NCBI GenBank assembly: GCA_902510025.1
Contig: CABWZX010000001.1
Span: 1,133-65,132 of the forward strand
Length of the DNA stretch: 64,000 nt
Direction of reading: 5' to 3'
Source of the DNA: an uncultured Pelagibacteraceae bacterium
GTDB taxonomy: Bacteria > Pseudomonadota > Alphaproteobacteria > Pelagibacterales > AG-422-B15
Shown: positions 5,815 to 30,061 of the stretch, piece by piece
Layout: every line of letters begins with the position of its first letter
Numbering within the stretch: position 1 is the stretch's first letter
Translations under genes and position numbers: made by a program
The notes under the pieces: model-generated
Told to the model about the DNA's origin: nothing
What the model saw: only the letters and a program-made list of their open reading frames with translations
Database searches by the model: none

Positions 5815-7098
5815 ATGGAGGCGCATATCTCTACCGCTGAACAAGTATTACTAACAACTGATGGAATTCCTCTAAAGGACAGCCTGAAGAAGACAGAAAG
5901 AAGGAATAAAATTAAGGCTTTTCTTCTTGTTTTCCCTCTTCTCCTTTTCATTATTGTTACATTTGTTGTCCCTATCTTTGATATGCTTGGCAGAAGTATT
6001 GACGATAGCCAAATCAATCAGGTTTACCCAAAAACATTTGAAGAGTATGGGAAGTGGGATAAAAAAGCAGATGAGCTTCCACCTGAAGAAGTTTTCAAAG
6101 CCATCTATTTTGAGCTCGGCACAGGCGACAAGATCATGATTGGAAGAGCGTTAACCCGGATGAACTATTCCAAATCTGGTTGGAAAAGTCTTATTAAAAA
6201 AACGCAAAGACAAATTAAAAAGGATCTTAAGGCTGAGACCGTCATAACATCATATAAAGATCGCCTAATTGAAATAAATGAGAAGTGGGCTGATCGAACC
6301 TATTGGTACGCAATGTCTCAAATGATTAATGAGCGTACACCTATTTATTATTGGAATGCATTAGATAGAACATACGACGCTGAAATGAACGTCGTAAGGC
6401 AGTCCGAAGAGAGAAGAATTTATGTCAAAACATGGATTAAAACTTTTAAAGTCAGTGTGTATGTTACTTTCTTTTGCCTGCTACTTGGTTTCCCTGTAGC
6501 CCATCTCTTAGCTAATTTGCCATTGCGTTATAGCAACTTATTAATGATTTTTGTTTTACTCCCATTCTGGACATCTCTACTGGTAAGAACAACAGCATGG
6601 ATTGTGATGTTACAGCAGAATGGGGTTATTAATGGGGTTTTGGTATGGCTTGGAATCTTATGCGATGATTGTCGGATTCAGATGGTCTATAATGAAACCG
6701 GGACACTAATTGCAATGACACAGATCTTACTTCCGTTCATGATACTTCCGCTCTACAGTGTCATGAAAGTTATTCCACCTAGTCATTTACGTGCCGCGGC
6801 AAATCTTGGGGCAAAACCTTTTACAGCTTTTATCAGAGTATATTTACCTCAAACTGTTCCTGGAATGAGCGCTGGTGGACTTTTAGTTTTTGTACTTGCG
6901 ATAGGATACTTTATTACACCTGAACTAGTTGGTGGTAAGGACGGACAATTAATTGGGCACTGGATTGCTTACCATTTAAAGACAACCTTAAACTGGGGTT
7001 TGTGTGCAGCATTGGGAGCTATACTTCTTGGAATCATGTTAATTTTATATTGGCTCTATAATAGAATTGTTGGAATCGATAATATTAAATTAGGATAA
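5815..7098 (+). CDS. ABC transporter permease (PotB/PotH-like) with a large extracytoplasmic insert after TM1
   Basis: Multi-TM protein with EAA-type loop 'AAANLGAKPFTAFIRVYLPQ'. 427 aa versus about 285 aa typical; the extra roughly 140 aa lie between TM1 and TM2. Confidence 0.8.
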   Translation: MEAHISTAEQVLLTTDGIPLKDSLKKTERRNKIKAFLLVFPLLLFIIVTFVVPIFDMLGRSIDDSQINQVYPKTFEEYGKWDKKADELPPEEVFKAIYFELGTGDKIMIGRALTRMNYSKSGWKSLIKKTQRQIKKDLKAETVITSYKDRLIEINEKWADRTYWYAMSQMINERTPIYYWNALDRTYDAEMNVVRQSEERRIYVKTWIKTFKVSVYVTFFCLLLGFPVAHLLANLPLRYSNLLMIFVLLPFWTSLLVRTTAWIVMLQQNGVINGVLVWLGILCDDCRIQMVYNETGTLIAMTQILLPFMILPLYSVMKVIPPSHLRAAANLGAKPFTAFIRVYLPQTVPGMSAGGLLVFVLAIGYFITPELVGGKDGQLIGHWIAYHLKTTLNWGLCAALGAILLGIMLILYWLYNRIVGIDNIKLG

Positions 7099-15650: not shown

Positions 15651-17804
15651 TTAATTAAAACCTAGTTCTTTCTTCCTTTTTTCAGCATAGGTTCTAATCA
15701 AATTGTCGACTATTAACCCAATGAAAGCAACGCAAATTCCAAGAATTAAGCCTTTGCCCGCTCCTTGTCTATCAGATAAAGCCTTTAAAATATATTGTCC
15801 TAAATCTTCAGTTCCAATAAAGGCTCCAATGATGACCATAAATAATGCAAAGACAACTGTTTGATTGATTCCGAGCATGATATGAGGGAATGCTAAAGGA
15901 AAATCAATTTTAATTAACCTTTGTAAAGCTGTAACTCCGGACATAGCTGCAGCATCATGTAAACTAGGAGGAATACTTCGAAGTCCTTCAACAGTATAAC
16001 GAGTTGCTGGAATAGTTGCATAAACGACTACTGCAATTAAGACGGCAGTATCTGTTACTCCAAATAGCATCATAACAGGTATTAAATATACAAATGATGG
16101 GAATGTTTGAAAAGTATCACAGACGCCTAAAATAAATTTTGAACTATAATTATTCTGAGAACACACAGTACCTACTGTTACTCCAATTATACTCGAAACG
16201 ATAACTCCGCAAGTTGCCATATAAGCTGTAACTAGCGCTCTATCCCACCATTCAGTTAGGGCGATAAATAGTGTAAATCCTCCAACAATTAAAGCTGATC
16301 GAAGACCTCCAATGATATAGCCTGCCCCCATAACTAAAACAAACGTTGCAACAACTGGCATGCGAAGAAAAGCTGCTCTCATAGGCTGCAATACATCAAC
16401 TATTAACCAGGTATTAAATACTTTTAGCGGATAAAAGAATGTATCCCATATCCAATCAACACCTCTATTCCAAAAGTCTTCATTCGATATTCCTTTATTA
16501 TGTGGAACCTCAAATAAATAATTAAAACCTTCTTTAAAATAGAAAGAACCAAAATAGGCAAGTATCAATCCTATGATCACTGTTCCAGCAAAAATTAATC
16601 CATATTTATAACGCTGGAAGAAATTAAGATTAGTGAAATAATCTGTTTGTTTATTTGCCCATGCCAAAGACAGCTTATCTAAAATAACAGCAATTAAAGT
16701 TATACAAACACCGGCCTCTAGAGCTGCTCCTATATTAAGGCGATTTAAAGCCAATAATAAATTCCATCCTAATCCTTTTGCTCCTATAAAAGATGATATA
16801 ACTGCCATCGATAAACACACCATAATGACCTGATTCACTCCAATCAAAATGTCTCTTTTCGCAGTTGGAATTAATACTTTAAGCATAAGTTGAAAATCAT
16901 TACATCCACTCATTTTTCCAGCATCAATAATTTCAGGAGATACTGCTCTCAGTCCTAACACGGTTAATAGGATCATTGGTGGAGTAGCAACAACTATGGT
17001 TGCAATAGCTCCAGCATGATCTCCAATGCCGAATAGAACCATTACAGGAACAAGATATGCATATTGGGGCATAGTTTGCATAACCATAAGTATAGGAGAC
17101 AACGCCGTTTCAACTTTTTTACTTTTGTAAGCCCAAACGCCCAGACTCAAACCAAGAATAAAAGAAACTGGTGCGGCAACTAGTATAAACGAAAGTGTTT
17201 GCATTGAAGGCTCCCATTGACCAAACACAGAAATATAAATCATGGTGACAGCAGCAAATATTGCAAGACCTCTTCCCGCCAATTTATATCCCAATATCGC
17301 TGCTCCAGCAGTGACTATAGTCCAAGGAATTCCACGAAATTCTGCCCATGGATTTGCATCAATCCAGTCCCAACTTGTAAATGCTACAACAGTCTTAACT
17401 CCACCTATGAATATTTCGCGAATGAATTCAATAAAAAAAAGTAGAGTTGATGAAATAAATCTTGTCACATGGAGCATAAATGGACGTGTTCTATAGTCGC
17501 CTAAATCAGAATCCCAAAAATCTATTTTCCACCAATCATTTAAGAAAAAATATAATACATCATTTATCCAAATAGGAAACCATCCAAGCCAAGGCGGTAA
17601 TCTCCATAAAAAATTAAAGTATGTATAGCTGACAGATATGCCTAAAAAACTGTAAGTAGATTGACCTTCAACTATTACGTGCTCAGCTTCAGCCCTTATA
17701 AATTTATAGCCCTCAGGTACATCTATTGCAAAAATTAATCCAAAAAAAGTAAGTAGCAATAAAAGCCATTGAAATAATTTTGGATGTTTATTTATAAATT
17801 CCAT
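15651..17804 (-). CDS. tmoV: Fused double permease of a betaine-family ABC importer (TmoV-like)
   Basis: 717 aa and highly hydrophobic, with two tandem permease halves. It lies immediately downstream of the ATPase. The symbol comes from context next to the tmm/tdm-like genes. Confidence 0.75.
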   Translation of the reverse strand: MEFINKHPKLFQWLLLLLTFFGLIFAIDVPEGYKFIRAEAEHVIVEGQSTYSFLGISVSYTYFNFLWRLPPWLGWFPIWINDVLYFFLNDWWKIDFWDSDLGDYRTRPFMLHVTRFISSTLLFFIEFIREIFIGGVKTVVAFTSWDWIDANPWAEFRGIPWTIVTAGAAILGYKLAGRGLAIFAAVTMIYISVFGQWEPSMQTLSFILVAAPVSFILGLSLGVWAYKSKKVETALSPILMVMQTMPQYAYLVPVMVLFGIGDHAGAIATIVVATPPMILLTVLGLRAVSPEIIDAGKMSGCNDFQLMLKVLIPTAKRDILIGVNQVIMVCLSMAVISSFIGAKGLGWNLLLALNRLNIGAALEAGVCITLIAVILDKLSLAWANKQTDYFTNLNFFQRYKYGLIFAGTVIIGLILAYFGSFYFKEGFNYLFEVPHNKGISNEDFWNRGVDWIWDTFFYPLKVFNTWLIVDVLQPMRAAFLRMPVVATFVLVMGAGYIIGGLRSALIVGGFTLFIALTEWWDRALVTAYMATCGVIVSSIIGVTVGTVCSQNNYSSKFILGVCDTFQTFPSFVYLIPVMMLFGVTDTAVLIAVVVYATIPATRYTVEGLRSIPPSLHDAAAMSGVTALQRLIKIDFPLAFPHIMLGINQTVVFALFMVIIGAFIGTEDLGQYILKALSDRQGAGKGLILGICVAFIGLIVDNLIRTYAEKRKKELGFN

Positions 17805-17817
17805 AAATTATAAATTG

Positions 17818-18849
17818 TCATTCACTATTTCCAAAGACAACGTGGATTACTTTTGATGGTTTTATAATTCCAACAACTTGTTGATTTGAATCAATAACAG
17901 GTACGGATTTTTCTTGATCTAAAATTTTTTCAGCTACTGTTTCAATTATTGCATCTTTTGAAACTTTAAAATCGCTTAGATTTTGTTCATCAGCTACTGG
18001 ATCCATTACTGCTTCAATTTTTAGAACTTTTTCTCTTGGAACTTCTTGTGTAAATTTACGTACATATTCTGTTGCTGGATTTAGAACAATATTTGCAGGT
18101 GTATCTAATTGTTCAATTATGCCATCTTTCATAATTGCAATTCGATCTGCAAGTTTTAGCGCTTCATCAAAATCATGAGTAACAAATAAGATTGTTTTTT
18201 TTAATGAACTTTGCAGTCTTAAAAACTCATCTTGCATTTCTTTTCTAATTAATGGATCAAGAGCAGAAAAGGGCTCATCTAAAAACCATATATCTGGTTC
18301 AACTGCTAGAGATCTAGCAATTCCTACTCTTTGTTGTTGTCCACCTGATAATTCTCTTGGAAAATAATTTTCCCTACCATCAAGTCCTACAAGTTTAACC
18401 ATCTCCATTGCTTTAGAGACGCTATCTTTAGTTTTAATGCCCTTGATTTGCAACGGGAAGGCAATATTTTCCAATACAGTTTTGTGAGGCAATAACGCAA
18501 AACTTTGGAAAACCATTCCCATTTTATTTCTTCTTAACTCTATTAATTCTTTATTTTTGAGAGATAATAAGTCCTGACCATCAATATAAATCTTACCTGA
18601 TGTAGCATCTGTAAGTCTTGACGCACATCGAAGTAACGTTGATTTTCCAGATCCAGATAAACCCATTACAACCAGCATTTCACCTCTTGAAACATCAAAA
18701 GATGCATTGTTTACTCCAACAATGCAGCCAGCTTCTTGAAATATTTTAGCATCTACATTACCATTTGCATCTTTGAGCATTTTTTCAGCATTTGCTCCAA
18801 AAATTTTATAAACAGATTCACATCTGATTACTGGTTCTACAGAAGTCAT
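17818..18849 (-). CDS. tmoW: ABC ATPase of the betaine-family importer (ProV/OpuAA/TmoW-like)
   Basis: Walker A 'GLSGSGKST', signature 'LSGGQQQRVGIARSL', Walker B 'IWFLDEPFSALD', and a C-terminal CBS-like regulatory region. Confidence 0.85.
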   Translation of the reverse strand: MTSVEPVIRCESVYKIFGANAEKMLKDANGNVDAKIFQEAGCIVGVNNASFDVSRGEMLVVMGLSGSGKSTLLRCASRLTDATSGKIYIDGQDLLSLKNKELIELRRNKMGMVFQSFALLPHKTVLENIAFPLQIKGIKTKDSVSKAMEMVKLVGLDGRENYFPRELSGGQQQRVGIARSLAVEPDIWFLDEPFSALDPLIRKEMQDEFLRLQSSLKKTILFVTHDFDEALKLADRIAIMKDGIIEQLDTPANIVLNPATEYVRKFTQEVPREKVLKIEAVMDPVADEQNLSDFKVSKDAIIETVAEKILDQEKSVPVIDSNQQVVGIIKPSKVIHVVFGNSE

Positions 18850-18910
18850 AAATTTATCGTTATAGCCTATCCTAAAATATTAAAAAAATCCCTTTTATTT
18901 TAAACGAGTT

Positions 18911-19450
18911 CTAATAGTTTTTTATAAAATATACTCTGGTGTCTATACCAGTATTTAAAAAACCTTTTGCTTGACCTACAACTGTAATGGTATGAGTTGT
19001 ACCGACCACAGCTTCTAGTGTATACTCAACCATACACACATTTGAAGAACTATCCCATTTTACTGAAGATTTCTCAATATTATTGCCATTATCTTTATAC
19101 AATTTTTGTGCGTCTATATCTGTAATATGTGCACCCATTACAGCACGTTGCGTAACTATTTTAGTGTTTTTGCAAACGGCTTCATATTCAGCAAGCGTTA
19201 ATTGATAACCCTCTTCACTTGCGTAGAAATTTACTTTGCCGCTAGGAAGCGAATTGATTATTTCCTCATAATTTTCTTCAGATTGATCACTCTCTAATAC
19301 GATATCACTTTCTGGAATTCTCTCTTCACCAGGAAAAATTATATAAAAAATAATAAATATTGAAATTATCAGAAGAAGAAATCCACTGAGTTCTAGTAAA
19401 CCCCTTAGTCCTTCAGGTGTTTCTTTGTATTTTCTTCTAATTAGATTCAA
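18911..19450 (-). CDS. Hypothetical membrane-anchored periplasmic protein
   Basis: 179 aa with a single N-terminal TM ('LLELSGFLLLIISIFIIFYIIF'). Its TTG start lies inside the 3' end of the MORN gene (14-nt overlap), with 'gaagg' 8 nt upstream. Confidence 0.5.
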   Translation of the reverse strand: MNLIRRKYKETPEGLRGLLELSGFLLLIISIFIIFYIIFPGEERIPESDIVLESDQSEENYEEIINSLPSGKVNFYASEEGYQLTLAEYEAVCKNTKIVTQRAVMGAHITDIDAQKLYKDNGNNIEKSSVKWDSSSNVCMVEYTLEAVVGTTHTITVVGQAKGFLNTGIDTRVYFIKNY

Positions 19451-19886
19451 CTAATTCGCCTTCTTTCCAAATACCCTTCATAATTGTTCCATCAGCATTA
19501 GTTCTAGTGCCCTGTCCATTCCTATTACCATTAATAAATTCTCCCACATATGTATCTCCATTTGCCCAAGTAAAAGCTCCTTGACCATTCATATTATCAT
19601 CAAACCATTCACCTATGTATTGAGCTCCATCTGGAAAAATTAAAGTTCCTTGTCCTTGCCATTTGCTATCAACAAATTCTCCTGTGTATATGTATCCGTT
19701 TGGCCAAGTTACAGTACCTTGCCCATGTTTTAAACTCCCACGCCACTCACCTACATATACAGTTTTGTCTGTATAGGTCCAAGTTCCGGTGCCATTTTCA
19801 CAATCTCCTTCACATCCAGTTTTACGCGCAAAGGCAGAATTACAAACAACCACACTTAAAAAAATAAATAGGAATAATCTTGTCAT
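19437..19886 (-). CDS. Secreted MORN-repeat protein
   Basis: Signal peptide 'MTRLFLFIFLSVVVCNSAFA' followed by about 5 MORN repeats ('YVGEWRGSLKHGQGT', 'YTGEFVDSKWQGQGT', 'YIGEWFDDNMNGQGA', 'YVGEFINGNRNGQGT'). Confidence 0.8.
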   Translation of the reverse strand: MTRLFLFIFLSVVVCNSAFARKTGCEGDCENGTGTWTYTDKTVYVGEWRGSLKHGQGTVTWPNGYIYTGEFVDSKWQGQGTLIFPDGAQYIGEWFDDNMNGQGAFTWANGDTYVGEFINGNRNGQGTRTNADGTIMKGIWKEGELVESN

Positions 19887-19901
19887 GATTTTATAGATAC
19901 T

Positions 19902-19940
19902 AAAAAAAATCTCCCCTAGTCTGAAACTAGGGGAGATTTT
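19902..19940 (-). terminator. Rho-independent terminator after the binding-protein gene (bidirectional geometry)
   Basis: Perfect 12-bp stem atctcccctagt/actaggggagat (19909-19920 / 19926-19937) with a 5-nt loop, flanked by A8 and T4. On the minus strand the hairpin is followed by U8. Confidence 0.75.
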
Positions 19941-19971
19941 AATTTAAAAATCTATGTTGTAAAAGAATTAA

Positions 19972-20910
19972 TTAAAATGCTTTCCACACAGACTCATTAT
20001 CAGCTAACCAAGCCGCTGCAGCATCTTCGTGTGTCATTCCATCAACGTCAACTAAAGCTGCCATCGCACCTATGTGACCTGTTGTAAAAGACATATTTTT
20101 GAAAATAGCCGCGGCATCTGGATGAGTATTAGGAAAATTCTCATTCACTGCTTTTTTCAAATAACCATCTGGTGAACCGCATGCTCCGTCTCCACCATCT
20201 TCTGGTCTACAACCATCATAGAATGGAGGGAAATCAATAAATGTGAAACCAGCACCATCTGTAAAGTTTGGTGTCCAGTTAAAGATTATTGTTCCTCTAT
20301 TTTCTTTTTTAGCTGCGTCTAGCTCAGCCCATAGTGCATCAGCACCACCAGCAAACTTAACCATCCATAAGTCATCTAAGCCAAGAGCTTCAAGACGCTG
20401 AGGCATTAAATCTTGGTGCCAAGTTTGTGGACCTTCTAGCCAACGACCTTTACCACCTGAGTCTGGTGTCACAAAGTTTGCAGCACAGTCAGGATTTTTT
20501 AAAGCCGTCCAATCAGGTAAACCTGGGCATAAATCAGCTACCCAGTTTGGATAACCCATATCTTCTAGTGTTCTAGCGTCATGGTCACCCCAGTCAAGTA
20601 AACCACCTGCATCACGTGCAGCATCAAATGATGAACCAAAAGCAGATTCCCACACTTCGTGTGAAATATCTACATCGCCTTGACGAATTGATTCATATAC
20701 TGCTTGAGAGTCAGCTGGTACATATTCTACGTTATTACCAATGCTTTCGAATATTCCACCGATCACATAGGCCATTACAACCTGACTTGACCAGTTGTGC
20801 ACTGGAATTCTTATTGGTTTTTTACTATCTGCAGCGTAGACAGCAGTTGATGCAAAAGTAATAGCAACAAGAGCAAACATTGCAGTTAGCATTTTTAAAG
20901 ATTTTAACAT
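19972..20910 (-). CDS. tmoX: Periplasmic substrate-binding protein, glycine betaine/TMAO family (OpuAC/TmoX-like)
   Basis: Signal peptide 'MLKSLKMLTAMFALVAITFASTAVYA'. Trp-rich mature protein of OpuAC size, divergent from the tmm-like gene. Higher GC and biased codons suggest high expression. Confidence 0.75.
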   Translation of the reverse strand: MLKSLKMLTAMFALVAITFASTAVYAADSKKPIRIPVHNWSSQVVMAYVIGGIFESIGNNVEYVPADSQAVYESIRQGDVDISHEVWESAFGSSFDAARDAGGLLDWGDHDARTLEDMGYPNWVADLCPGLPDWTALKNPDCAANFVTPDSGGKGRWLEGPQTWHQDLMPQRLEALGLDDLWMVKFAGGADALWAELDAAKKENRGTIIFNWTPNFTDGAGFTFIDFPPFYDGCRPEDGGDGACGSPDGYLKKAVNENFPNTHPDAAAIFKNMSFTTGHIGAMAALVDVDGMTHEDAAAAWLADNESVWKAF

Positions 20911-21171
20911 GTATCCCCCTTCTTAAAGGTTCTTTAATTAAATTTAATTATTACTAAAAATTCTATTGATGCTAAGAGTACGAGTCAAATGAGATAGACT
21001 TTATTTGATCTATATATGCTGCTATACCTATTCAATAGATACTATATATGGTTAAAAATATATATTAAATTTATACATATGCATGCACATATAAATTAGG
21101 CGTGACATTTTAATTCGTTGATCATTTTCGATTTTATAAATTAGAATAAAAAAAATTTATTAGGAGATTAA

Positions 21172-22506
21172 ATGAGTAGAGTAGCAATTATAGGTTCAGG
21201 TCCATGTGGTTTATCAATATTAAGGGCTTTCCAACAAGCAGAGGCAAAAGGAGAAAAGATTCCTGAAATTGTTTGTTATGAAAAACAAGATGATTGGGGT
21301 GGACTATGGAACTATAGTTGGAGAACAGGATCAGACCAGTATGGAGATCCAGTTCCTAACAGCATGTATCGATATCTTTGGTCAAATGGACCAAAAGAGT
21401 GTTTAGAATTTGCTGACTATTCCTTCGATAAACATTTTGGTCAACCAATACCATCATTCCCTCCACGTGAAGTTTTATTTGATTATATCTTAGGTCGCGC
21501 AAAAGATGCTGATATTAAAAAATATATTAAATTTGGAACAAAAGTAACGAATGTTATTCATAACGGATCTCAATATGAAATTACTTCTTTAAACAAAAAA
21601 GAAAATACGACTTCAAAAGAAAATTTTGATTACTTGGTTGTAGCGTCAGGACACTTTTCAGTTCCATTCATTCCTGAATATGAAGGCATGCAATCTTTTC
21701 CTGGTCGTATCTTACATTCTCATGATTTTAGAGACGCAGAAGAATTTAGGGGAAAGGATGTAATCGTCTTAGGTAGCAGTTACTCTGCTGAAGATGTAGC
21801 ACTTCAATGTTATAAGTACGGAGCTAAGTCCGTAACAATTGGTTATAGAAATAACCCAATGGGCTTTAAATGGCCCGATGGTATGAAAGAAGTACATTAC
21901 CTAGATAAATTGGAAGGAAACAAAGCTACCTTTAAAGATGGCCATACTCAAAATGTAGATGCTCTAATATTATGTAGTGGCTATCTCCATCATTTTCCTT
22001 ATATGGAAGACAGCTTAACACTTAAAACTCATAACAGACTCTACCCACCAAAACTTTATAAAGGCGTTGTTTGGCAAGATAATCACAGCTTAATGTATCT
22101 TGGTATGCAAGACCAATTTCATACTTTCAATATGTTTGATTGCCAAGCCTGGTATGCACGAGATGTAATAATGGGGAAAATCAAAATGCCTGGTGCTGAT
22201 GAAATTGAAAAAGACATTAACAAGTGGGTTGCTCTAGAGGAAAAATTAGAAGATCCAATCCAAATGATCGACTTTCAAACGGAATATACAAAAGATTTGC
22301 ATGAAGCGTCTGACTATCCAGAGATAGACTTTGAATTAATCAGAGTTCACTTCAAGGAATGGGAGCATAACAAGGAAGAGGATATTATGACTTATCGAAA
22401 TAATTCTTTCTCTTCTCCAGTAACTGGAACTGAGGCTCCACTGCATCATACCCCATGGGGAGAAGCCATGGATGATTCCATGAAGACATTCATGAAGTCT
22501 AAATAA
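21172..22506 (+). CDS. tmm: Flavin-containing monooxygenase, trimethylamine monooxygenase-like
   Basis: FAD site 'IIGSGPCG', FMO motif 'FPGRILHSHDFR' (FxGxxxHxxxF/Y), NADPH site 'VLGSSYSAED'. About 445 aa, as in bacterial Tmm. Confidence 0.85.
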   Translation: MSRVAIIGSGPCGLSILRAFQQAEAKGEKIPEIVCYEKQDDWGGLWNYSWRTGSDQYGDPVPNSMYRYLWSNGPKECLEFADYSFDKHFGQPIPSFPPREVLFDYILGRAKDADIKKYIKFGTKVTNVIHNGSQYEITSLNKKENTTSKENFDYLVVASGHFSVPFIPEYEGMQSFPGRILHSHDFRDAEEFRGKDVIVLGSSYSAEDVALQCYKYGAKSVTIGYRNNPMGFKWPDGMKEVHYLDKLEGNKATFKDGHTQNVDALILCSGYLHHFPYMEDSLTLKTHNRLYPPKLYKGVVWQDNHSLMYLGMQDQFHTFNMFDCQAWYARDVIMGKIKMPGADEIEKDINKWVALEEKLEDPIQMIDFQTEYTKDLHEASDYPEIDFELIRVHFKEWEHNKEEDIMTYRNNSFSSPVTGTEAPLHHTPWGEAMDDSMKTFMKSK

Positions 22507-22508
22507 TC

Positions 22509-23735
22509 CTAAGACTGGTAAGATAAACGCGGCACGGCTTTTTCTATAATAGGAATGTGCATAGCCGCTGAAGCAAATCCTAAGAGCACACATAACCACC
22601 ACATCAGGTCATAAGATCCGTACATATCATACAGTCTTCCTCCAAACCATGAACCCAAAAATGACCCAAATTGATGTGATAAAAAAGTAAACCCATAAAG
22701 CATGGACATATATTTTACACCAAATACAACACTGATAATTCCACTAGTAAGTGGTACAGTTGCAAGCCATAAAACTCCAAGCAAAGCTGCAAAGATTAAT
22801 ATTGTGATTTCATTCTTCGGAACAATTATAAAAATAATAAATAGAATTGATCTCAAAGAATAAAGTACAACTAATAGATTTTTCTTAGACATTCTGTCAC
22901 CAAGTCTTGCAAATATTAAAGTGCCAAAAATATTAAATAATCCAATTAATGCTAAAGACCAACTGCCAATCCAAGAAGGTAGGCTTATGTCATCTAAATA
23001 CGCTGGAAGATGAGTTGCTACAAAAGCGACATGGAATCCACATACAAAAAAACCAATAGTCAGTAAATTATAGCTTTTTGATTTGAATGCTTCCTTTAGC
23101 GCATCTTTCAGGGTCTGATCTGAAACTTGACTAGATGAATCAGATTTTCCAGAATAGTTTAATGCATAGCAAAATATAATCATGACTGATGCAATTAAAG
23201 TTAGATACAGAATTGAACTAGACCAATTTGAAACTTCAATTAAGAAGCCTGCAAAGGGAACCAATATAAACTGACCTAGGGATCCCGCAGCCATAACAAT
23301 TCCTAAAGACAAGGTACGATGTTGTTCTTTTACTGTTTTCCCAACAGCTCCCAGAACAACCGCTGTTCCACAGCCAGCTGCCCCCAAGCCAAATATTGCT
23401 TGTGAAGCAATAATATCAAAACTTGTATTCACATGTGCCATCCAGAAAAGCCCAATTAAAACTAGTATTACTCCTGATAAAGATGCCTTCCCTGATCCAT
23501 ACTTATCTGACATTGCTCCAAATAAAGGAGACCCAATACCAATTAGAAGAAATTGAATTGCTACTGCAAACCCAAATACTTCACGACCAGTTTGTAGATG
23601 ATTAGAAATTGGAACAAGATAAAGACCTGATGAATGTCTAATTCCGAATGATATTAATAATAATATACTTCCACCAACTATAACAAAATTAGAAATATAT
23701 TTTTTATTAAGGGAACTATTCATATTCGTACTCAT
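22509..23735 (-). CDS. MFS transporter (12 TM), substrate unknown
   Basis: 408-aa polytopic protein. Its ATG overlaps the stop of the upstream cupin gene by 1 nt (taATG). Confidence 0.8.
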   Translation of the reverse strand: MSTNMNSSLNKKYISNFVIVGGSILLLISFGIRHSSGLYLVPISNHLQTGREVFGFAVAIQFLLIGIGSPLFGAMSDKYGSGKASLSGVILVLIGLFWMAHVNTSFDIIASQAIFGLGAAGCGTAVVLGAVGKTVKEQHRTLSLGIVMAAGSLGQFILVPFAGFLIEVSNWSSSILYLTLIASVMIIFCYALNYSGKSDSSSQVSDQTLKDALKEAFKSKSYNLLTIGFFVCGFHVAFVATHLPAYLDDISLPSWIGSWSLALIGLFNIFGTLIFARLGDRMSKKNLLVVLYSLRSILFIIFIIVPKNEITILIFAALLGVLWLATVPLTSGIISVVFGVKYMSMLYGFTFLSHQFGSFLGSWFGGRLYDMYGSYDLMWWLCVLLGFASAAMHIPIIEKAVPRLSYQS

Positions 23736-24100
23736 TATTTTTCTGTAAAGATATACTTACCTCGGTGAGTTACCACAGTAGTACAGCCTGAAGAAGTAGT
23801 GCTGTAATGTAATGAACCAGATGATAGATGAACAAAATCCCCTTTCTTATAAGTATATCCATCAGGGTCTGTTAAATCTCCTTCTAATATAAAAAACTCT
23901 TCTGGACCTTCATGTAAATGGGCTTTTGATTTAGTGCCTGGATCCATTTTGTAGAGATATGAACCTTCTCCAGTTTCTTCATCATAACTTAAATTGTACC
24001 ACCAAGTATTACCATCCTGGCCAGCAGATTCTTCTTCTAATAATTCCCACTCTATGGATTCAATATTAGAAACCTTTCTGTAATCAGATAATGTAGACAT
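23735..24100 (-). CDS. Cupin-domain protein
   Basis: Cupin motif 1 'HLHEGPEEFFILEG' and motif 2 region 'GDFVHLSSGSLH'. Starts 10 nt after the tdm-like stop. Confidence 0.65.
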   Translation of the reverse strand: MSTLSDYRKVSNIESIEWELLEEESAGQDGNTWWYNLSYDEETGEGSYLYKMDPGTKSKAHLHEGPEEFFILEGDLTDPDGYTYKKGDFVHLSSGSLHYSTTSSGCTTVVTHRGKYIFTEK

Positions 24101-24110
24101 GATTTATTTT

Positions 24111-26468
24111 TTAAGCTTTAACTCTACTTTTAGTAGGATCGTAAAATGGAAAAGGAATAATTTTTGCTTTAATTCTTTTCTGATGTCCATCCAATTTACC
24201 AATTTCAACTTCTATTCCTTCTTCAGATGAATGAATATCAATTCTGCATAATGCTATATTTTTATTTAGAGTAGGTGAAATCATCCCACTAGTGACAACT
24301 CCAACTTGTCCTCTTCCTATATGAACACAATCTCCGTGGCCACAAAGCTCATTGCCTTCAATTTCAAGCCCAACCAATTTACGTAGGGGGTTCTCTTTTC
24401 TCTTCACAAGCGCATCACGACCAATAAAGTTGGCATCTTTTGATTTAAGAGGAACTGTAAAAGAGATGCCCGCTTCAAATGGATCTGTCTCATCGCTAAA
24501 TTCATTACCGCCAAGAATAAGACCTGCTTCAATCCTTAACATATCTAATGCAGCAAACCCCATAGGAGCTATATCAAACTCCTGGCCTGCCTCCCAAATA
24601 GCGTCCCATACTTTAGGACCATCTTTTGGGTGACAATAAACTTCATATCCAAGTTCACCTGTATAGCCTGTTCGAGATAACATTACAGGGATACCCAGGT
24701 GATCATTTAAGCGACTAATGGTAAAATGAAACCACTTTAAATCTTCAATTCCTGGACTTGCAGGCGTTGTCCACATAATTTTTGATAATACTTTCCTACT
24801 GTTTGGACCTTGTACTGAAATATTATGTAATTGATCAGATGAAGATCTAACAGACACCTTTAACTCTAATTTTTTACCTAACTCTCTTAGCCACTCACCT
24901 GAATAATCACTTCCTCCAATCCACCTGAAATTAGCATCACCTAATTTAAATAATGTTCCATCATCAATCATTGTTCCATTTTCATAACACATCGCTGTAT
25001 AGACAACTTGTCCAATCGCTAACTTTTTTACATTCCGTGTAAGCGCTGTGTTCATTAACTCTTCAGCATCTGGACCTACAACCTCAAACTTCTTAAGAGA
25101 AGAAAGATCCATCATTATTACATTATCTCTACAAGCTGTATATTCAGCGACTGTCCCATAATTATCATATTTGTTTGGTATCCAAACTCCCGCAAACTCC
25201 ACGTAATCTTTTGTTAATTTAGATGTACGTTCATGAAAGGCTGTTTGCTTTGTTAAAGAAACATCTGAGTCTGGATTCTTGCGATAAGCCATAGCTTTAG
25301 AAAAAAAGTTTTTCTTTGAATAAACTCTAACGCATATATCTGTTGGATTCCAGTCATTTGCTGCATCAATATCACAAGGGCAAGCAGATGAAGCAACTAC
25401 TAAGTTTTTTTGAGCTTGAAATAAAACATAATTCCCAGGTGTTGACCAAGGCAAGTCAAAAAATAAAACGTTTGATGCATCTAATCCAGTGTTAAAAAAT
25501 AAATTGATAGCTTGCCAACCACGCCTTTCATTTATTCCAAATGGTTTAAGGGCTACATTAAAATTGTCTGAACAATTTGCATGACCAAAGTAGCCTACAT
25601 CTTCGTAGTATTTTGCACTACAGGCGTTGCCAAATGTATCATGACGTCCGCATGTGTCTTGAATAACTTCTACGAGTGCATCTTGATCTCTATCAAAATA
25701 CTTTGCAAATAATCCAGGCATTGCATAATTCAATCCGATAATACTCCGGGTTACTATTGGATCGATGCTCAACTCTATCCCTTTTTGTAATTTTGCTGCG
25801 TCAAAGACCTGAAAATCTGAACACTGTCTTCCATATAGATCAATAACTTGAATGAAATCTCCTGCCTCAACTTCATATGATATTGCTGTACTATTACTAA
25901 TAATAAATTCATCTTTGATGTCAGCTAAAGGAGGGGGTAAATAATAGTTAGACTTATTATCAATTCTATTTTTTCGTTTAACTCTAATCTCTAAGTCTGT
26001 GGCAGGATTTTGAGAGTCAACTGCCATATCTTCCCCTGGAGCAGCTATAATTACAAAGCCATCTTCTTGACACTCAAGATCTAAGGTTTCTCTAATTTTT
26101 GTTTCAGTGTTAAAAAAGTTTGTAGAAACGGCTTTATGAAAATCTATGTTTTTCTTCTTTAATTTAGTTAATAGAAATTTGTTATCAAGGCTATTTGATA
26201 AAATATTTTTTACAAAAGAAGCGTCATTATTTTTCTTACAGCTTATTGCATCTGGAGAACACTTACCGGAGTTATCAAATGCAACGACTTCTGCGATTTG
26301 ACTTCCTTCAGTATTAATTATTGAAATAATATCCCCTGCAAAAAACTCAAAGCCAATAAGGCCTTGTGCTTTTGCAATGTAACGCTCAACATCTTCAGGA
26401 AGCCCTAGAATCCCTGCATTGAATGGTTGAGTTCTTCTAATATTAAAGCCTGATAAATCCAAATCCAA
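24111..26468 (-). CDS. tdm: DUF1989 + GcvT-fold protein, trimethylamine N-oxide demethylase-like
   Basis: 785 aa. The C-terminal half has the aminomethyltransferase (THF-binding) fold, including 'SRTGYTGELGYEV'. The N-terminal half matches the architecture reported for Tdm. TTG start with 'gaggtg' RBS. Confidence 0.75.
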   Translation of the reverse strand: MDLDLSGFNIRRTQPFNAGILGLPEDVERYIAKAQGLIGFEFFAGDIISIINTEGSQIAEVVAFDNSGKCSPDAISCKKNNDASFVKNILSNSLDNKFLLTKLKKKNIDFHKAVSTNFFNTETKIRETLDLECQEDGFVIIAAPGEDMAVDSQNPATDLEIRVKRKNRIDNKSNYYLPPPLADIKDEFIISNSTAISYEVEAGDFIQVIDLYGRQCSDFQVFDAAKLQKGIELSIDPIVTRSIIGLNYAMPGLFAKYFDRDQDALVEVIQDTCGRHDTFGNACSAKYYEDVGYFGHANCSDNFNVALKPFGINERRGWQAINLFFNTGLDASNVLFFDLPWSTPGNYVLFQAQKNLVVASSACPCDIDAANDWNPTDICVRVYSKKNFFSKAMAYRKNPDSDVSLTKQTAFHERTSKLTKDYVEFAGVWIPNKYDNYGTVAEYTACRDNVIMMDLSSLKKFEVVGPDAEELMNTALTRNVKKLAIGQVVYTAMCYENGTMIDDGTLFKLGDANFRWIGGSDYSGEWLRELGKKLELKVSVRSSSDQLHNISVQGPNSRKVLSKIMWTTPASPGIEDLKWFHFTISRLNDHLGIPVMLSRTGYTGELGYEVYCHPKDGPKVWDAIWEAGQEFDIAPMGFAALDMLRIEAGLILGGNEFSDETDPFEAGISFTVPLKSKDANFIGRDALVKRKENPLRKLVGLEIEGNELCGHGDCVHIGRGQVGVVTSGMISPTLNKNIALCRIDIHSSEEGIEVEIGKLDGHQKRIKAKIIPFPFYDPTKSRVKA

Positions 26469-26655
26469 TTTACACCTCTAAAAATCTCTACTTATTAAGC
26501 CTAAGTGTTTCTTACAAGCTAATATAAGTAAATATTTATGTATATAATATATATACATACAAAATAGTTTTCTTTTTTTTGCTGATATTTAAGAATTGGA
26601 AATTGCTAATAATTAGTAGAGAGAAAAAGGGCTTTTTTAACAAAATTTAAGAATA

Positions 26656-27999
26656 ATGTCATTTCCACAAAAAGCAGAGTACGTAATTATTGGAGCTGGG
26701 ATCCATGGTCTCAGCACAGCATGGCACTTAGCTCAAAAATTAAAGGCTCAAGGAAAAGGTGATGGAAGTAAAATCCTTGTAATTGAGAAAGATGGAATTG
26801 CTTCTGGAGCAAGTGGAATTGCTTGTGGTGTAATTCGTAATAATTATTTCCAACCTGCAATGCGTGAACTTATGGCTCATTCTGTAGAAGTTTGGGAAAG
26901 TGATCCAAAGAATTTTCATTACCACAGCTGTGGTTATATGCAAATAAGCCCTGCAAGCATGGAAGAAGATGTAGTATCTATTTACGAACAACAAAAATCG
27001 ATCGGTTATGAATCATCTTTTATCCAAGGAGAAAAAGAAGTTGATACCTACATGAAATCACTATTTGGTGACTGGCAAGCAAAAGGGGTCACAAGTGTTC
27101 TTCATGAGAAAAAGGGAGGGTTTGCAAATAATACGTCTTCTATCTATGGATTGGCGGCAAAAGCTGAAGCAGAAGGTGTTAGAATATTATCTGGAACTAC
27201 AGTAACTGGTTTTGAATATGGATCTAACTCAAAAGCGGTAACTGGAGTAGAAACTGATAAAGGCACTGTTAAATGTGATCAAGTTATTATTGGAGCTGGA
27301 CCATGGGTAAAATCATTCTGGGATATGCTTGATCTTCCAAGTGAAGTTTCAATTAAATCTAATGGAACGGTGCATCCTAATGTACCTATGTGGCAATACT
27401 GGTACTTAACTGAAGGGGTACTGGGTGTTGAACCAGATTTCCTTAAAACAGATGATGGCAATATGCCTCCTGTTATTCATGTCGATACTGATGCACCTTT
27501 GTATTCAGATGTCGATAAATCTCTGATTACTGATAAAATTTGGGGACTTTATTATAAACCTGATTTTCATTTTAATGGAATTCAAGGTGGATCATCTCCT
27601 TACAAAGTAGGTGAACCAGGCGGTGAGGGAATTTCAGTTGATCCATACGGACCAGCATCAACAGAATTTATTATTGATGATGAGTTTGCTCATATGTGGA
27701 GTTCTGCATTAGCATTTTGTCACAAACGTTTTGAAGGCAAATCCCATCTTTTCAAAAAAGGTGCCACTGGTGGGTTAGGTTGTTTTACTCCAGACTCTTT
27801 CCCTGTTTTTGATCAATTCAGAGAGAATGTTTACGTTATTGCAGATTCCAATCACGGATATAAAATGCTTGGTGTAGGCAAGCTTGTTGCCGAAGAAGTA
27901 TTAGGAGAAAAAAGCGCTTTGTTAGAACCTTTCAGGCTTTCAAGGTATGAAGAAGGAAAACTTCATCCTGTATCAAATAGTCCTTTCCCTTGGAGCTAA
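26656..27999 (+). CDS. FAD-dependent oxidoreductase (DAO/sarcosine-oxidase-beta-like), orphan
   Basis: N-terminal dinucleotide fold 'YVIIGAGIHGLSTAWHLA'. At 447 aa it is longer than SoxB, with an internal insert. Divergent from the tdm-like gene. Confidence 0.8.
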   Translation: MSFPQKAEYVIIGAGIHGLSTAWHLAQKLKAQGKGDGSKILVIEKDGIASGASGIACGVIRNNYFQPAMRELMAHSVEVWESDPKNFHYHSCGYMQISPASMEEDVVSIYEQQKSIGYESSFIQGEKEVDTYMKSLFGDWQAKGVTSVLHEKKGGFANNTSSIYGLAAKAEAEGVRILSGTTVTGFEYGSNSKAVTGVETDKGTVKCDQVIIGAGPWVKSFWDMLDLPSEVSIKSNGTVHPNVPMWQYWYLTEGVLGVEPDFLKTDDGNMPPVIHVDTDAPLYSDVDKSLITDKIWGLYYKPDFHFNGIQGGSSPYKVGEPGGEGISVDPYGPASTEFIIDDEFAHMWSSALAFCHKRFEGKSHLFKKGATGGLGCFTPDSFPVFDQFRENVYVIADSNHGYKMLGVGKLVAEEVLGEKSALLEPFRLSRYEEGKLHPVSNSPFPWS

Positions 28000-28059
28000 T
28001 TCACTAAAAAAGTTAAAAAATTATTTCGAAGCTTGCTGTAATTGTAGTAGAGTTTCGCG

Positions 28060-28407
28060 ATGGAACCGGTACATTTATTACTTAAATTCTGGGAAGAGCA
28101 GATGAGAAAATCTCATCGTTCAAGTAATTTCTTTTTTCGTAAAACACCTTCACATTATCACATGATGTTATTAGTAATGTCTGCTTACTATAATCAAAAA
28201 ACATTATCAGTTGAGGAATTAAAAACAAAGTTATTTAATACATCAAGACCTAAATCCTCAATGATCATTACAGAAGCATGTGAAAGAGGATTTTTTTATT
28301 TGGAAAGAACTGACGTAGATAAGCGTCGGAAACACATCAAACCAAGTGAGTTATTTATCAAAGAATTCACAGATTACTTGGAAACACTAAAAAACATCAG
28401 TACCTAA
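28060..28407 (+). CDS. Small winged-helix (MarR-like) putative transcriptional regulator
   Basis: 'LSVEELKTKLFNTSRPKSSMIITEACERGFFYLERTDVDKRRKHIKPSE' resembles a MarR-type wHTH wing (D-x-R-R...). Start codon uncertain. Confidence 0.45.
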   Translation: MEPVHLLLKFWEEQMRKSHRSSNFFFRKTPSHYHMMLLVMSAYYNQKTLSVEELKTKLFNTSRPKSSMIITEACERGFFYLERTDVDKRRKHIKPSELFIKEFTDYLETLKNIST

Positions 28408-28523
28408 GCCGATAAAAATATATCCTTTTTATATATTTTTTTTATTTCTAAATTAAAATATTTTAAATGAGCCATTTCAAATGCTTATCTAAAATTAACA
28501 ATTATTAAATATATTAATTATAT

Positions 28524-29780
28524 ATGAAAAAGTACTCGGTCTTTAGTTTGATTAAGAACGCTTTGTCCCATCATCAAAATTGGGATGTTGCATGGAGAGA
28601 TCCTGAACCAAAAAAAGAATATGAAGTAATAATTATTGGTGGTGGTGGTCACGGTTTAGCTACAGCATATTATCTTGCAAAAAATTTTAATATTCGAAAT
28701 GTTGCGATCCTTGAAAAAGGATGGATAGGAGGAGGGAATGTTGGAAGGAATACAACAATCCTTCGCTCTAACTATATGTATAACGCAAACAATCTCTTTT
28801 ATGAAGAAGGGATGAAAATGTGGAGAAATTTGAGTCAAGAATTGAATTATAATGTGATGTATTCTCCTCGTAACATTCTTAACCTTGCACACTCTGATGC
28901 ACAAATGAATGCTTATTCTAGAAGAGGAAACTCTATGCGCCTCAATGGTATTGATGCTCAATTGCTATATAGAGAAGACATAAAAAAAATTATTCCCTTT
29001 GCTGATTTCTCTTCAAATTGTCGTTTTCCAATTTTTGGAGCATTAAGGCAACCTGCCGGTGGAACTGCAAGACATGATGCTGTTGCTTGGGGTTATGCAA
29101 GAGGGGCTGATGACCTTGGAGTTGATATAATTCAGAACTGTGAAGTAACTGGTTTTGATGTCAATAATGGAAAAATTCAAGGAGTCCAAACTTCTCGGGG
29201 AAATATTAAAACAAAAAAAATTGGCCTTTGTGTTGCTGGAAGTACTTCGCTGCTTGCTGAAAAACTAAATATGACACTGCCTATCGAAGCGCACGTTTTA
29301 CAAGCTTGTGTATCAGAACCAATTAAACCTCTACTTGATCAAGTAGTAACATTTGGAGCAGGTCATTTCTACTGCAGTCAATCTGATAAAGGTGAGATGG
29401 TGATGGGTGGCGATCTTGATGGTTACAACAGTTATGCACAAAGAGGAAACTTACCAACTATTCAACATGTATTGACTGAAGGTGTCGCCCTCTTCCCTAA
29501 TCTTAGTCGTTTAAAAATATTAAGAACTTGGGGTGGAATTATGGATATGTCTATGGATACTTCTCCAATTATAGATAAAACTCATATTGACGGATTGTAT
29601 TTAAATTGTGGTTGGTGCTATGGTGGATTTAAAGCCACTCCAGTATCTGGATTAACCTTTGCCCACACGATCGCTAAAGACGAAGTTCATGAATTAAATG
29701 CACCTTTTAGACTTGATAGATTCCACACTGGCCATCTGATTGATGAAAAAGGAATTGGAACAAAAACCTGGATTAGTTAA
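28524..29780 (+). CDS. soxB: Heterotetrameric sarcosine oxidase family, beta subunit (SoxB/MgdA-like)
   Basis: 'VIIIGGGGHGLATAYYLA' FAD fold and 'GGTARHDAVAWGY' (FMN-linking His region). First gene of a B-D-A-G array. Confidence 0.85.
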   Translation: MKKYSVFSLIKNALSHHQNWDVAWRDPEPKKEYEVIIIGGGGHGLATAYYLAKNFNIRNVAILEKGWIGGGNVGRNTTILRSNYMYNANNLFYEEGMKMWRNLSQELNYNVMYSPRNILNLAHSDAQMNAYSRRGNSMRLNGIDAQLLYREDIKKIIPFADFSSNCRFPIFGALRQPAGGTARHDAVAWGYARGADDLGVDIIQNCEVTGFDVNNGKIQGVQTSRGNIKTKKIGLCVAGSTSLLAEKLNMTLPIEAHVLQACVSEPIKPLLDQVVTFGAGHFYCSQSDKGEMVMGGDLDGYNSYAQRGNLPTIQHVLTEGVALFPNLSRLKILRTWGGIMDMSMDTSPIIDKTHIDGLYLNCGWCYGGFKATPVSGLTFAHTIAKDEVHELNAPFRLDRFHTGHLIDEKGIGTKTWIS

Positions 29781-29782
29781 CA

Positions 29783-30061
29783 ATGCTTGAAATTAAATGT
29801 CCATATTGCGGTAAACGTTCCCAAAATGAATTTGCGTATGGTGGAGATGCAACTGTAAAGCGTCCTGAATTGAACAAAGAAGTACCAGACGAAGAATGGG
29901 ACACTTTTGTTTATTACAGAAAAAATCCGCGCGGTAATCATCTCGAACTCTGGCATCATATTTCTGGCTGTAGACAATGGTTTAAAGCAAAAAGAAACAC
30001 TGCAACTCATGAAATTATTGATACATTTGAGCTTAGTGATGACATTGGAGATGCATCATGA
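29783..30061 (+). CDS. soxD: Sarcosine oxidase family, delta subunit
   Basis: 92 aa with 'CPYCGKRSQNEFAYGGDA' and 'WHHISGCRQWF' Zn-ribbon-like motifs typical of SoxD. Confidence 0.85.
   Translation: MLEIKCPYCGKRSQNEFAYGGDATVKRPELNKEVPDEEWDTFVYYRKNPRGNHLELWHHISGCRQWFKAKRNTATHEIIDTFELSDDIGDAS

Follow-up and report, generated by a model that had tools for sequence, protein, structure and literature searches.

TMAO demethylation and its known gene cluster

In surface seawater, demethylation of trimethylamine N-oxide (TMAO) is one of the major routes by which methylated amines are turned over. The gene for TMAO demethylase, tdm, ranks with the most strongly expressed genes in marine Alphaproteobacteria; work on the aerobic pathway of trimethylamine (TMA) and TMAO reportedly includes that of Lidbury et al. 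from 2014 and 2017. The present analysis concerns a stretch of 64,000 nucleotides (nt) from an uncultured Pelagibacteraceae bacterium (assembly GCA_902510025.1, contig CABWZX010000001.1), referred to below as the window, and three adjacent minus-strand genes within it: tdm, a gene for a cupin of 121 amino acids (aa), and a gene for a transporter of the major facilitator superfamily (MFS). The explanation favoured overall, and considered moderately probable, is that tdm and the cupin gene form a module in which the cupin is an accessory protein, the MFS gene having been placed beside them in one genus. What is new here is a cupin partner, of putative function, within a known TMA/TMAO pathway cluster. 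As far as found, the conserved tdm-cupin module has not been described before; a literature search, with subscription journals outside its reach, returned no paper linking a cupin with TMAO demethylase or Tdm.

The closest described system is the aerobic TMA/TMAO cluster of Ruegeria pomeroyi DSS-3, Methylocella silvestris and Pelagibacter (PMC5520151, PMC13390433). The window resembles it in having a Tdm and a trimethylamine monooxygenase (Tmm) that score above their NCBIfam cut-offs, together with a TmoX/V/W-type ATP-binding cassette (ABC) transport system, and differs from it in that a cupin gene is pressed against tdm, both here and in 43 other species-level genomes. No dmmDABC-like genes were seen among the open reading frames (ORFs) profiled at 15651–30061, where no search aimed at dmm families was made. 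In this the window is like all SAR11, from which dmmDABC is absent (PMC5520151); the missing genes are a known trait of SAR11 and not a peculiarity of this locus.

The enzyme itself has been studied in Paracoccus, where recombinant TDM is active alone and no partner protein has been described (PMC13619132). Cryo-electron microscopy of this protein (9q59 and 9q5l, eLife 2026) found Zn and no Fe site (PMC13619132), whereas an earlier study of M. silvestris, as cited in the same paper, had reported both Zn and Fe(II) in Tdm. The window tdm (24111–26468, minus strand, TTG start) encodes 785 aa that match the NCBIfam family NF053776 with 1107 bits against a cut-off of 1100, over model positions 9–763 (1106.7 bits in the genome search), and that comprise the catalytic domain PF09347 (DUF1989, residues 190–357), the GcvT-type tetrahydrofolate-binding domain PF01571 (GCV_T, 412–670) and the C-terminal barrel PF08669 (GCV_T_C, 696–777). 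Against the solved Paracoccus TDM (9q59) the protein scores 868 bits over residues 28–783. It also keeps the three-Cys Zn motif, with C283, C299 and C363 aligned to C285, C301 and C365 of the Paracoccus enzyme (PMC13619132) at an offset of +2, and these three cysteines are invariant in 21 Tdm sequences. The window gene is a genuine TMAO demethylase gene; unlike the Paracoccus enzyme, which was studied and works alone, its product is encoded beside a cupin.

Conservation of the tdm-cupin pair

The cupin gene (23735–24100, minus strand) was followed through a genome scan with one genome per GTDB species, which yielded 80 cupin loci. Wherever the encoded cupin was at least about 49% identical to that of the window, tdm lay directly adjacent and on the same strand; this held at 44 of 44 loci, the two seeming exceptions being loci cut short by the end of a contig, where the 3′ end of tdm is nevertheless visible. 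Many more cupins, 55–93% identical, were returned by a search of 5.8 billion proteins, and on the metagenome contigs that were opened the gene stood directly beside tdm in six of six. At 36 further loci, in Pelagibacter, SUP05/Thioglobus and Piscirickettsiaceae, the cupin is 38–47% identical and is never adjacent to tdm. A maximum-likelihood tree of the cupins places the 44- and 36-locus sets on opposite sides of one branch, with a support of 99 in the Shimodaira–Hasegawa-like approximate likelihood ratio test (SH-aLRT).

The pair occurs in two gene orders. In the window's genus and in HIMB59-type single cells and metagenome-assembled genomes (MAGs), tdm is followed by the cupin gene at a gap of 7–15 nt and then by a convergent tmm. 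The second order is that of 13 Ruegeria genomes, of Paracoccaceae/Rhodobacterales MAGs and of one SAR116 single cell: here tmoX, tmoV and tmoW lead into the cupin gene, which is followed by tdm, with overlaps of 1 or 4 nt. The Tdm tree separates a Rhodobacterales/SAR116 side from a SAR11/HIMB59 side with support of 100, and the Tdm of the SAR116 locus (L025) is accordingly 69–71% identical to the Paracoccaceae type and 49% identical to that of the window. The cupin of the same locus has a discordant history, being 78–80% identical to the cupins of the window's genus and 54–59% identical to those of Paracoccaceae, and it nests with the window's genus inside a 16-member clade with support of 100. 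By these comparisons, the cupin gene has moved between lineages and has yet ended beside tdm, in a different gene order. Because the histories of the two proteins are discordant while the adjacency is kept in two orders, selection for the linkage is indicated; its retention is hard to explain otherwise, and it is very likely that tdm and the cupin gene constitute a functional module. A conserved metalloprotein strictly linked to tdm would mean that the textbook pathway lacks a component in several abundant lineages, and the pair is directly testable, as it is carried by cultured Ruegeria species such as R. atlantica CECT 4292, R. halocynthiae DSM 27839 and R. conchae TW15.

The original prediction had put forward both the cupin and the MFS protein as possible parts of the handling of TMAO or dimethylamine (DMA). 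For the cupin this idea has held up, given its place beside tdm at 44 of 44 loci and on six of six contigs and its retained metal site; it has not for the MFS protein, an ortholog of which is found away from tdm in relatives of the window genome (37 of 41 genomes carry one).

The cupin protein

The best Pfam family for the cupin is Cupin_7 (57.9 bits), and Cupin_2 was also matched. The complete H-x-H-x3-E metal motif that had been claimed for it is present as H61, H63 and E67. The full pattern of cupin motif 1, G(X)5HXH(X)3-4E(X)6G, is satisfied by G55-TKSKA-H61-L-H63-EGP-E67-EFFILE-G74, in which H61, H63, E67 and G74 are invariant, and that of motif 2, G(X)5PXG(X)2H(X)3N, is matched by G87-DFVHL-S-S-G95-SL-H98-YST-T, where the Gly and His residues are kept and Pro and Asn are replaced by Ser and Thr, respectively. 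Among 30 tdm-linked cupins, 35 of about 121 positions are invariant, including H61, H63, E67, E68, H98 and T111-H112-R113-G114, and C106 is nearly so. The protein keeps the residues of a His/His/Glu/His metal site.

An AF2 model of the cupin, with a predicted local distance difference test (pLDDT) score of 95.7, is all-beta, and its top structural matches are cupins. The Foldseek matches include 2o1q (a putative acetylacetone dioxygenase), 3bal (Dke1), 4bif (a Mn hydroxynitrile lyase), 5tfz (DddK) and TM1459, with query-normalised TM-scores of 0.68–0.78 and sequence identities to these small metallo-cupins of 14–22%. The window cupin is therefore predicted to have in common with small catalytic metallo-cupins of about 120–150 aa a single-domain fold and a metal site of the His/His/Glu/His type, and it differs from them in its low identity and in a genomic context that is specific to tdm. 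In the case of DddK, which is a SAR11 lyase of dimethylsulfoniopropionate (DMSP), the TM-score is 0.69–0.72 at 18–20% identity, and there is no sequence match at E ≤ 1. The catalytic Tyr of DddK presumably follows the metal-binding Glu; in the sequence alignment of the tdm-linked cupins, the residue two positions after E67 is an invariant Phe, F69.

Since its closest folds are catalytic (acetylacetone dioxygenase, Mn hydroxynitrile lyase and DddK), the cupin might, as the main alternative to a helper of Tdm, be an independent small-molecule enzyme, such as a lyase, isomerase or oxygenase. Its substrate would be TMAO, an intermediate or side-product of Tdm, or another N-oxide or a quaternary amine that is related and imported by TmoXVW. 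Such an enzyme would be suited by the invariance of the metal ligands and of many residues of pocket size, and by the one of the two gene orders that sets the cupin between the transporter genes and tdm. The known pathway, however, has no missing substrate at the TMAO step, most tdm-bearing genomes are without the cupin, and tight coupling to tdm in both orders suits a partner protein at least as well, so that an independent enzyme is an unlikely reading of these data. A more specific candidate role, as a substitute for dimethylamine monooxygenase, was rejected, mainly because at 121 aa the cupin is without a reductase or NAD(P)H-binding part. The cupin is also present in the genus of the dmmDABC-bearing R. 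pomeroyi, Ruegeria (PMC5520151); the dmmDABC status of the cupin-bearing species themselves was not checked.

A regulatory role has its starting point in sequence similarity. The best PDB sequence match of the cupin is the cupin domain of the anti-sigma factor ChrR (3o14, E 2e-7), its relatives carry the database name 'anti-sigma factor ChrR (cupin superfamily)', and a look-up in the ESM Atlas returned ChrR-like cupin clusters only. A Cupin_7 domain is indeed common to the C-terminus of ChrR (3o14, 2q1z) and to the window protein, but the latter is a stand-alone protein of 121 aa that lacks the N-terminal anti-sigma domain, and its scores against the ChrR families are low (26.8 bits for TIGR02451, cut-off 124.5; 17.7 bits for NF051881, cut-off 300) and cover model positions 128–197 only. 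Because the anti-sigma domain is missing and the score lies far under the cut-off, the ChrR labels are over-annotations. No sigma-factor family was matched among the neighbouring genes profiled at 15651–30061. Functionless hitch-hiking beside tdm, for its part, cannot explain the unbroken adjacency at 44 loci, the two gene orders or the discordant Tdm and cupin histories. That the cupin is a regulator or sensor of the ChrR-like anti-sigma kind, or that its adjacency to tdm is hitch-hiking, is accordingly regarded as very improbable.

The paralogous cupins provide some further context. The clade at 38–47% identity (L067–L103; a further example is L119 5643–6005) has the same metal ligands as the tdm-linked cupins. 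In the Pelagibacter genome G030 the paralogous gene has an Asp/Glu racemase gene and an alpha/beta hydrolase gene as neighbours and lies at a distance of 2.5 kb from soxAG, and two Pelagibacter genomes have a paralogous cupin without tdm. At the level of the class, paralogs of 37–47% identity in GC-rich Alphaproteobacteria were not near tdm or other GcvT-type genes, and their contexts gave no functional lead.

Proposed role of the cupin

Taken with the conservation of the pair, the features of the protein are consistent with a two-gene module, tdm and the 121-aa cupin, inside the methylated-amine cluster, in which the cupin would be made together with Tdm. It would most likely assist TMAO demethylation as a metal-dependent accessory protein and would not be a stand-alone pathway enzyme. 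The cupin might act directly on Tdm or alongside it, for instance as a handler of a labile metal cofactor or as a stabiliser of the enzyme. This is the direction indicated by the metal site, which is intact, by the strong conservation of the protein and by its strict coupling to tdm on one strand in two gene orders; such direct action is proposed tentatively, at somewhat below even probability. A stronger form of the proposal is that Tdm functionally requires the cupin as a partner in some of the most abundant TMAO consumers of the ocean, namely one SAR11 genus, pelagic Roseobacters, SAR116 and HIMB59-type cells. The cupin would then be either a metallo-subunit or chaperone that sets the metal state of the enzyme, with a bearing on the question of Zn alone or Zn with Fe, or a new enzyme acting on a Tdm intermediate or product; this is rather doubtful.

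Several observations weigh against a close dependence of Tdm on the cupin. In an even sample of the class, comprising 401 genomes, 33 had tdm, and the window's genome was the only one with a cupin beside it; within the order to which the window organism belongs, 15 genomes carry tdm and 13 of them are without the cupin. A contig of a close relative, designated L047, keeps an intact tdm, with a Tdm 84% identical to that of the window, beside a decayed cupin gene. In this remnant (5990–6312) the ATG has become ACG, the reading frame is cut off near residue 103, conserved residues are altered and the invariant VVTHRG end is lost, and the cupin is therefore dispensable. A search for fusions found no long Tdm-cupin fusion protein, which is weak evidence, and the Zn-only Tdm structure weakens a role for the cupin in iron delivery (PMC13619132). 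The cupin is thus accessory, outside the catalytic core, and it is not essential for Tdm chemistry, because Tdm from organisms that lack it works alone in vitro (PMC13619132) and close relatives of the window organism (genus g4 and Pelagibacter) have tdm without it. At the same time, the disagreement between Zn alone and Zn with Fe(II) makes a neighbouring metal-binding protein worth testing, and the cupin is a concrete handle on the question of which metals Tdm needs.

The L047 contig also lacks the MFS gene and tmm, with an AT-rich spacer of about 290 nt in their place. It was binned as Flavobacteriales but is clearly SAR11-like, with Tdm 84% and tmoV 91% identical to those of the window.

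The MFS transporter and the three-gene arrangement

The third gene of the arrangement (22509–23735, minus strand) encodes an MFS protein of 408 aa that resembles oxalate/formate antiporters and monocarboxylate transporters. It matches MFS_1 with 144 bits and falls below the cut-off of every NCBIfam transporter family, including the oxalate/formate antiporter families TIGR00890 (77.8 bits, cut-off 374.85) and TIGR04259 (52.8 bits, cut-off 335). Its nearest solved relatives, aligned over near full length, are the oxalate:formate antiporter OxlT (8hpj, E 4e-11) and the L-lactate transporter SfMCT (6g9x, E 7e-9). R272 and K355, the basic residues with which OxlT binds oxalate, are replaced in the window protein by T272 and H354, and the position of the arginine in transmembrane helix 8 of SfMCT is likewise T272. 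Given these replacements, even a carboxylate substrate is not assured.

The gene is a core gene of SAR11. An ortholog is present in 37 of the 41 genomes of the order, 65–75% identical within the family and 36–45% in the sister family, and it is found in genera in which tdm was not (10 of 12 genomes with the MFS gene and 0 of 12 with tdm in genus g3, 4 of 5 and 0 of 5 in g2, and 4 of 4 and 0 of 4 in g5). In g4, the nearest tdm-bearing genus, it lies 60 kb from tdm (G004) or on another contig, with genes for patatin, LysE and MatE as neighbours, and the tdm locus there consists of tmoWVX, tdm, a divergent DAO gene and soxBDAG, with no tmm, MFS or cupin gene between them. A search for a site emptied by a move of the MFS gene found no clear orthologs of these patatin and LysE genes in the two g1 genomes, which are only 55% and 61% complete. 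In Pelagibacter the MFS gene adjoins genes for a Cys/Met pyridoxal phosphate (PLP) enzyme and anthranilate synthase. Since the ortholog is nearly universal and lies elsewhere in relatives, and since the g4 locus is without it, its place after the cupin gene probably reflects a rearrangement in one genus only.

The original prediction had named a lack of conservation of the trio outside this genome as an outcome that would refute it, and this is essentially the outcome obtained. The MFS gene follows the cupin gene only in the window genome (G000) and in its sister AG-430-P10 (G001, locus L024), and it is absent from this position at the other 42 cupin-tdm loci and on the six metagenome contigs. 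The trio is very probably not a conserved unit.

The prediction had further read the packing of the three genes as a sign of one operon. The coordinates and junctions on which it relied are correct: the tdm stop is followed after 10 nt by the ATG of the cupin gene, whose TAA overlaps the MFS ATG as taATG with 1 nt shared. However, the window has 42 pairs of neighbouring genes on a common strand, and for these the median gap is 2.5 nt, with gaps of at most 15 nt in 26 pairs and touching or overlapping genes in 17. The sister genome has the same 10 nt between tdm and the cupin gene but an 11-nt gap without overlap at the cupin-MFS junction. Because tight spacing is the norm across the window, packing is weak as evidence, and spacing alone says little in a streamlined genome. 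Promoter and terminator scans stayed at background level, and marine RNA libraries contained only small shares of the window stretch. The MFS gene is probably co-transcribed with tdm and the cupin gene in the window's genus.

A single functional unit of tdm, cupin and MFS protein, in which the transporter moves DMA, methylamine, TMAO or formate, would draw on the common strand and the close spacing of the three genes in the window's genus (10 nt and an overlap, or 10 nt and 11 nt) and on the absence from the MFS protein of the two basic residues with which OxlT binds oxalate. It would also offer an exit for DMA, which must leave the cell in SAR11 in the absence of dmmDABC (PMC5520151). Against this stand the restriction of the trio to two genomes of one genus, the near-universal presence of the MFS ortholog in the order, including genera without tdm and in unrelated neighbourhoods, its absence from the other 42 loci and the six contigs, and the fact that comparable spacing is the norm in this genome. 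Such a unit is thus considered improbable. The MFS gene came to this place recently and in a single lineage, which provides no evidence that it transports TMAO specifically, and the gene should not be annotated as TMAO- or DMA-related on the strength of one genus.

The surrounding methylated-amine cluster

The window has a GC content of about 35% and comes from a genome that is 55% complete at about 0.78 Mb, relatives having 1.2–1.5 Mb. Among named records the nearest is AG-430-P10, a single-cell genome that bears the label 'uncultured Pelagibacteraceae', and the window organism is SAR11-type. The locus as a whole is a methylated-amine cluster of the SAR11 type, with tmoXVW, tmm, tdm, a DAO flavoprotein gene and soxBDAG/mgd-like genes. 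Its TMAO-type ABC transporter locus (15651–20910, minus strand; OpuAC, ABC_tran and a double BPD_transp_1 permease) runs from tmoW (15651–17804) to tmoX, which extends to 20910, and includes tmoV; the same genes flank tdm and the cupin gene at all related loci. The tmm gene (21172–22506, plus strand) scores 748 bits against NF058570 (cut-off 675) and is convergent with the MFS gene across a gap of 2 nt.

The window tmm shares 82–84% identity with its HIMB59-type counterpart, which is convergent with the cupin gene (L027–L038). Tdm of the window shares only 64–65% identity with the HIMB59-type Tdm, against 80% with the Tdm of genus g4, where tmm is missing from the site. The cupin-tmm block may have a history different from that of tdm. 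The arrangement of tdm, cupin gene and convergent tmm is also recognisable on a long-read metagenome contig (L133, 2875–6705), where tdm and tmm are each split into two called genes, probably by assembly frameshifts.

Divergent from tdm lies a gene for a DAO-family flavin adenine dinucleotide (FAD) oxidoreductase of 447 aa (26656–27999, plus strand; PF01266), and beyond it follow an ORF of 115 aa and a soxBDAG-like operon. The flavoprotein gene is found beside tdm, at 78–93% identity, in the sister genome, on the L047 contig and in HIMB59-type loci (78–82% in the last, L028–L038 at about 400–1770), as well as at 83% in genus g4 (G004) and 62% in Pelagibacter (G030); the copies beside tdm include L114 8831–10174 and L117 4894–6222. 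It stays beside tdm with or without the cupin gene and is a candidate for an amine-oxidation step in a clade that lacks dmmDABC.

Between tmoX and tmoV, on the same minus strand, lie a MORN-repeat gene and a gene for a protein of 179 aa (18911–19886). Both are kept inside the tmo locus in the sister genome (L024 10223–11224) and on L047 (7622–8624), and they are found at 44–48% identity in a Pelagibacter genome (L117 10573–11559). The two genes seem to belong stably to the tmo locus of SAR11.

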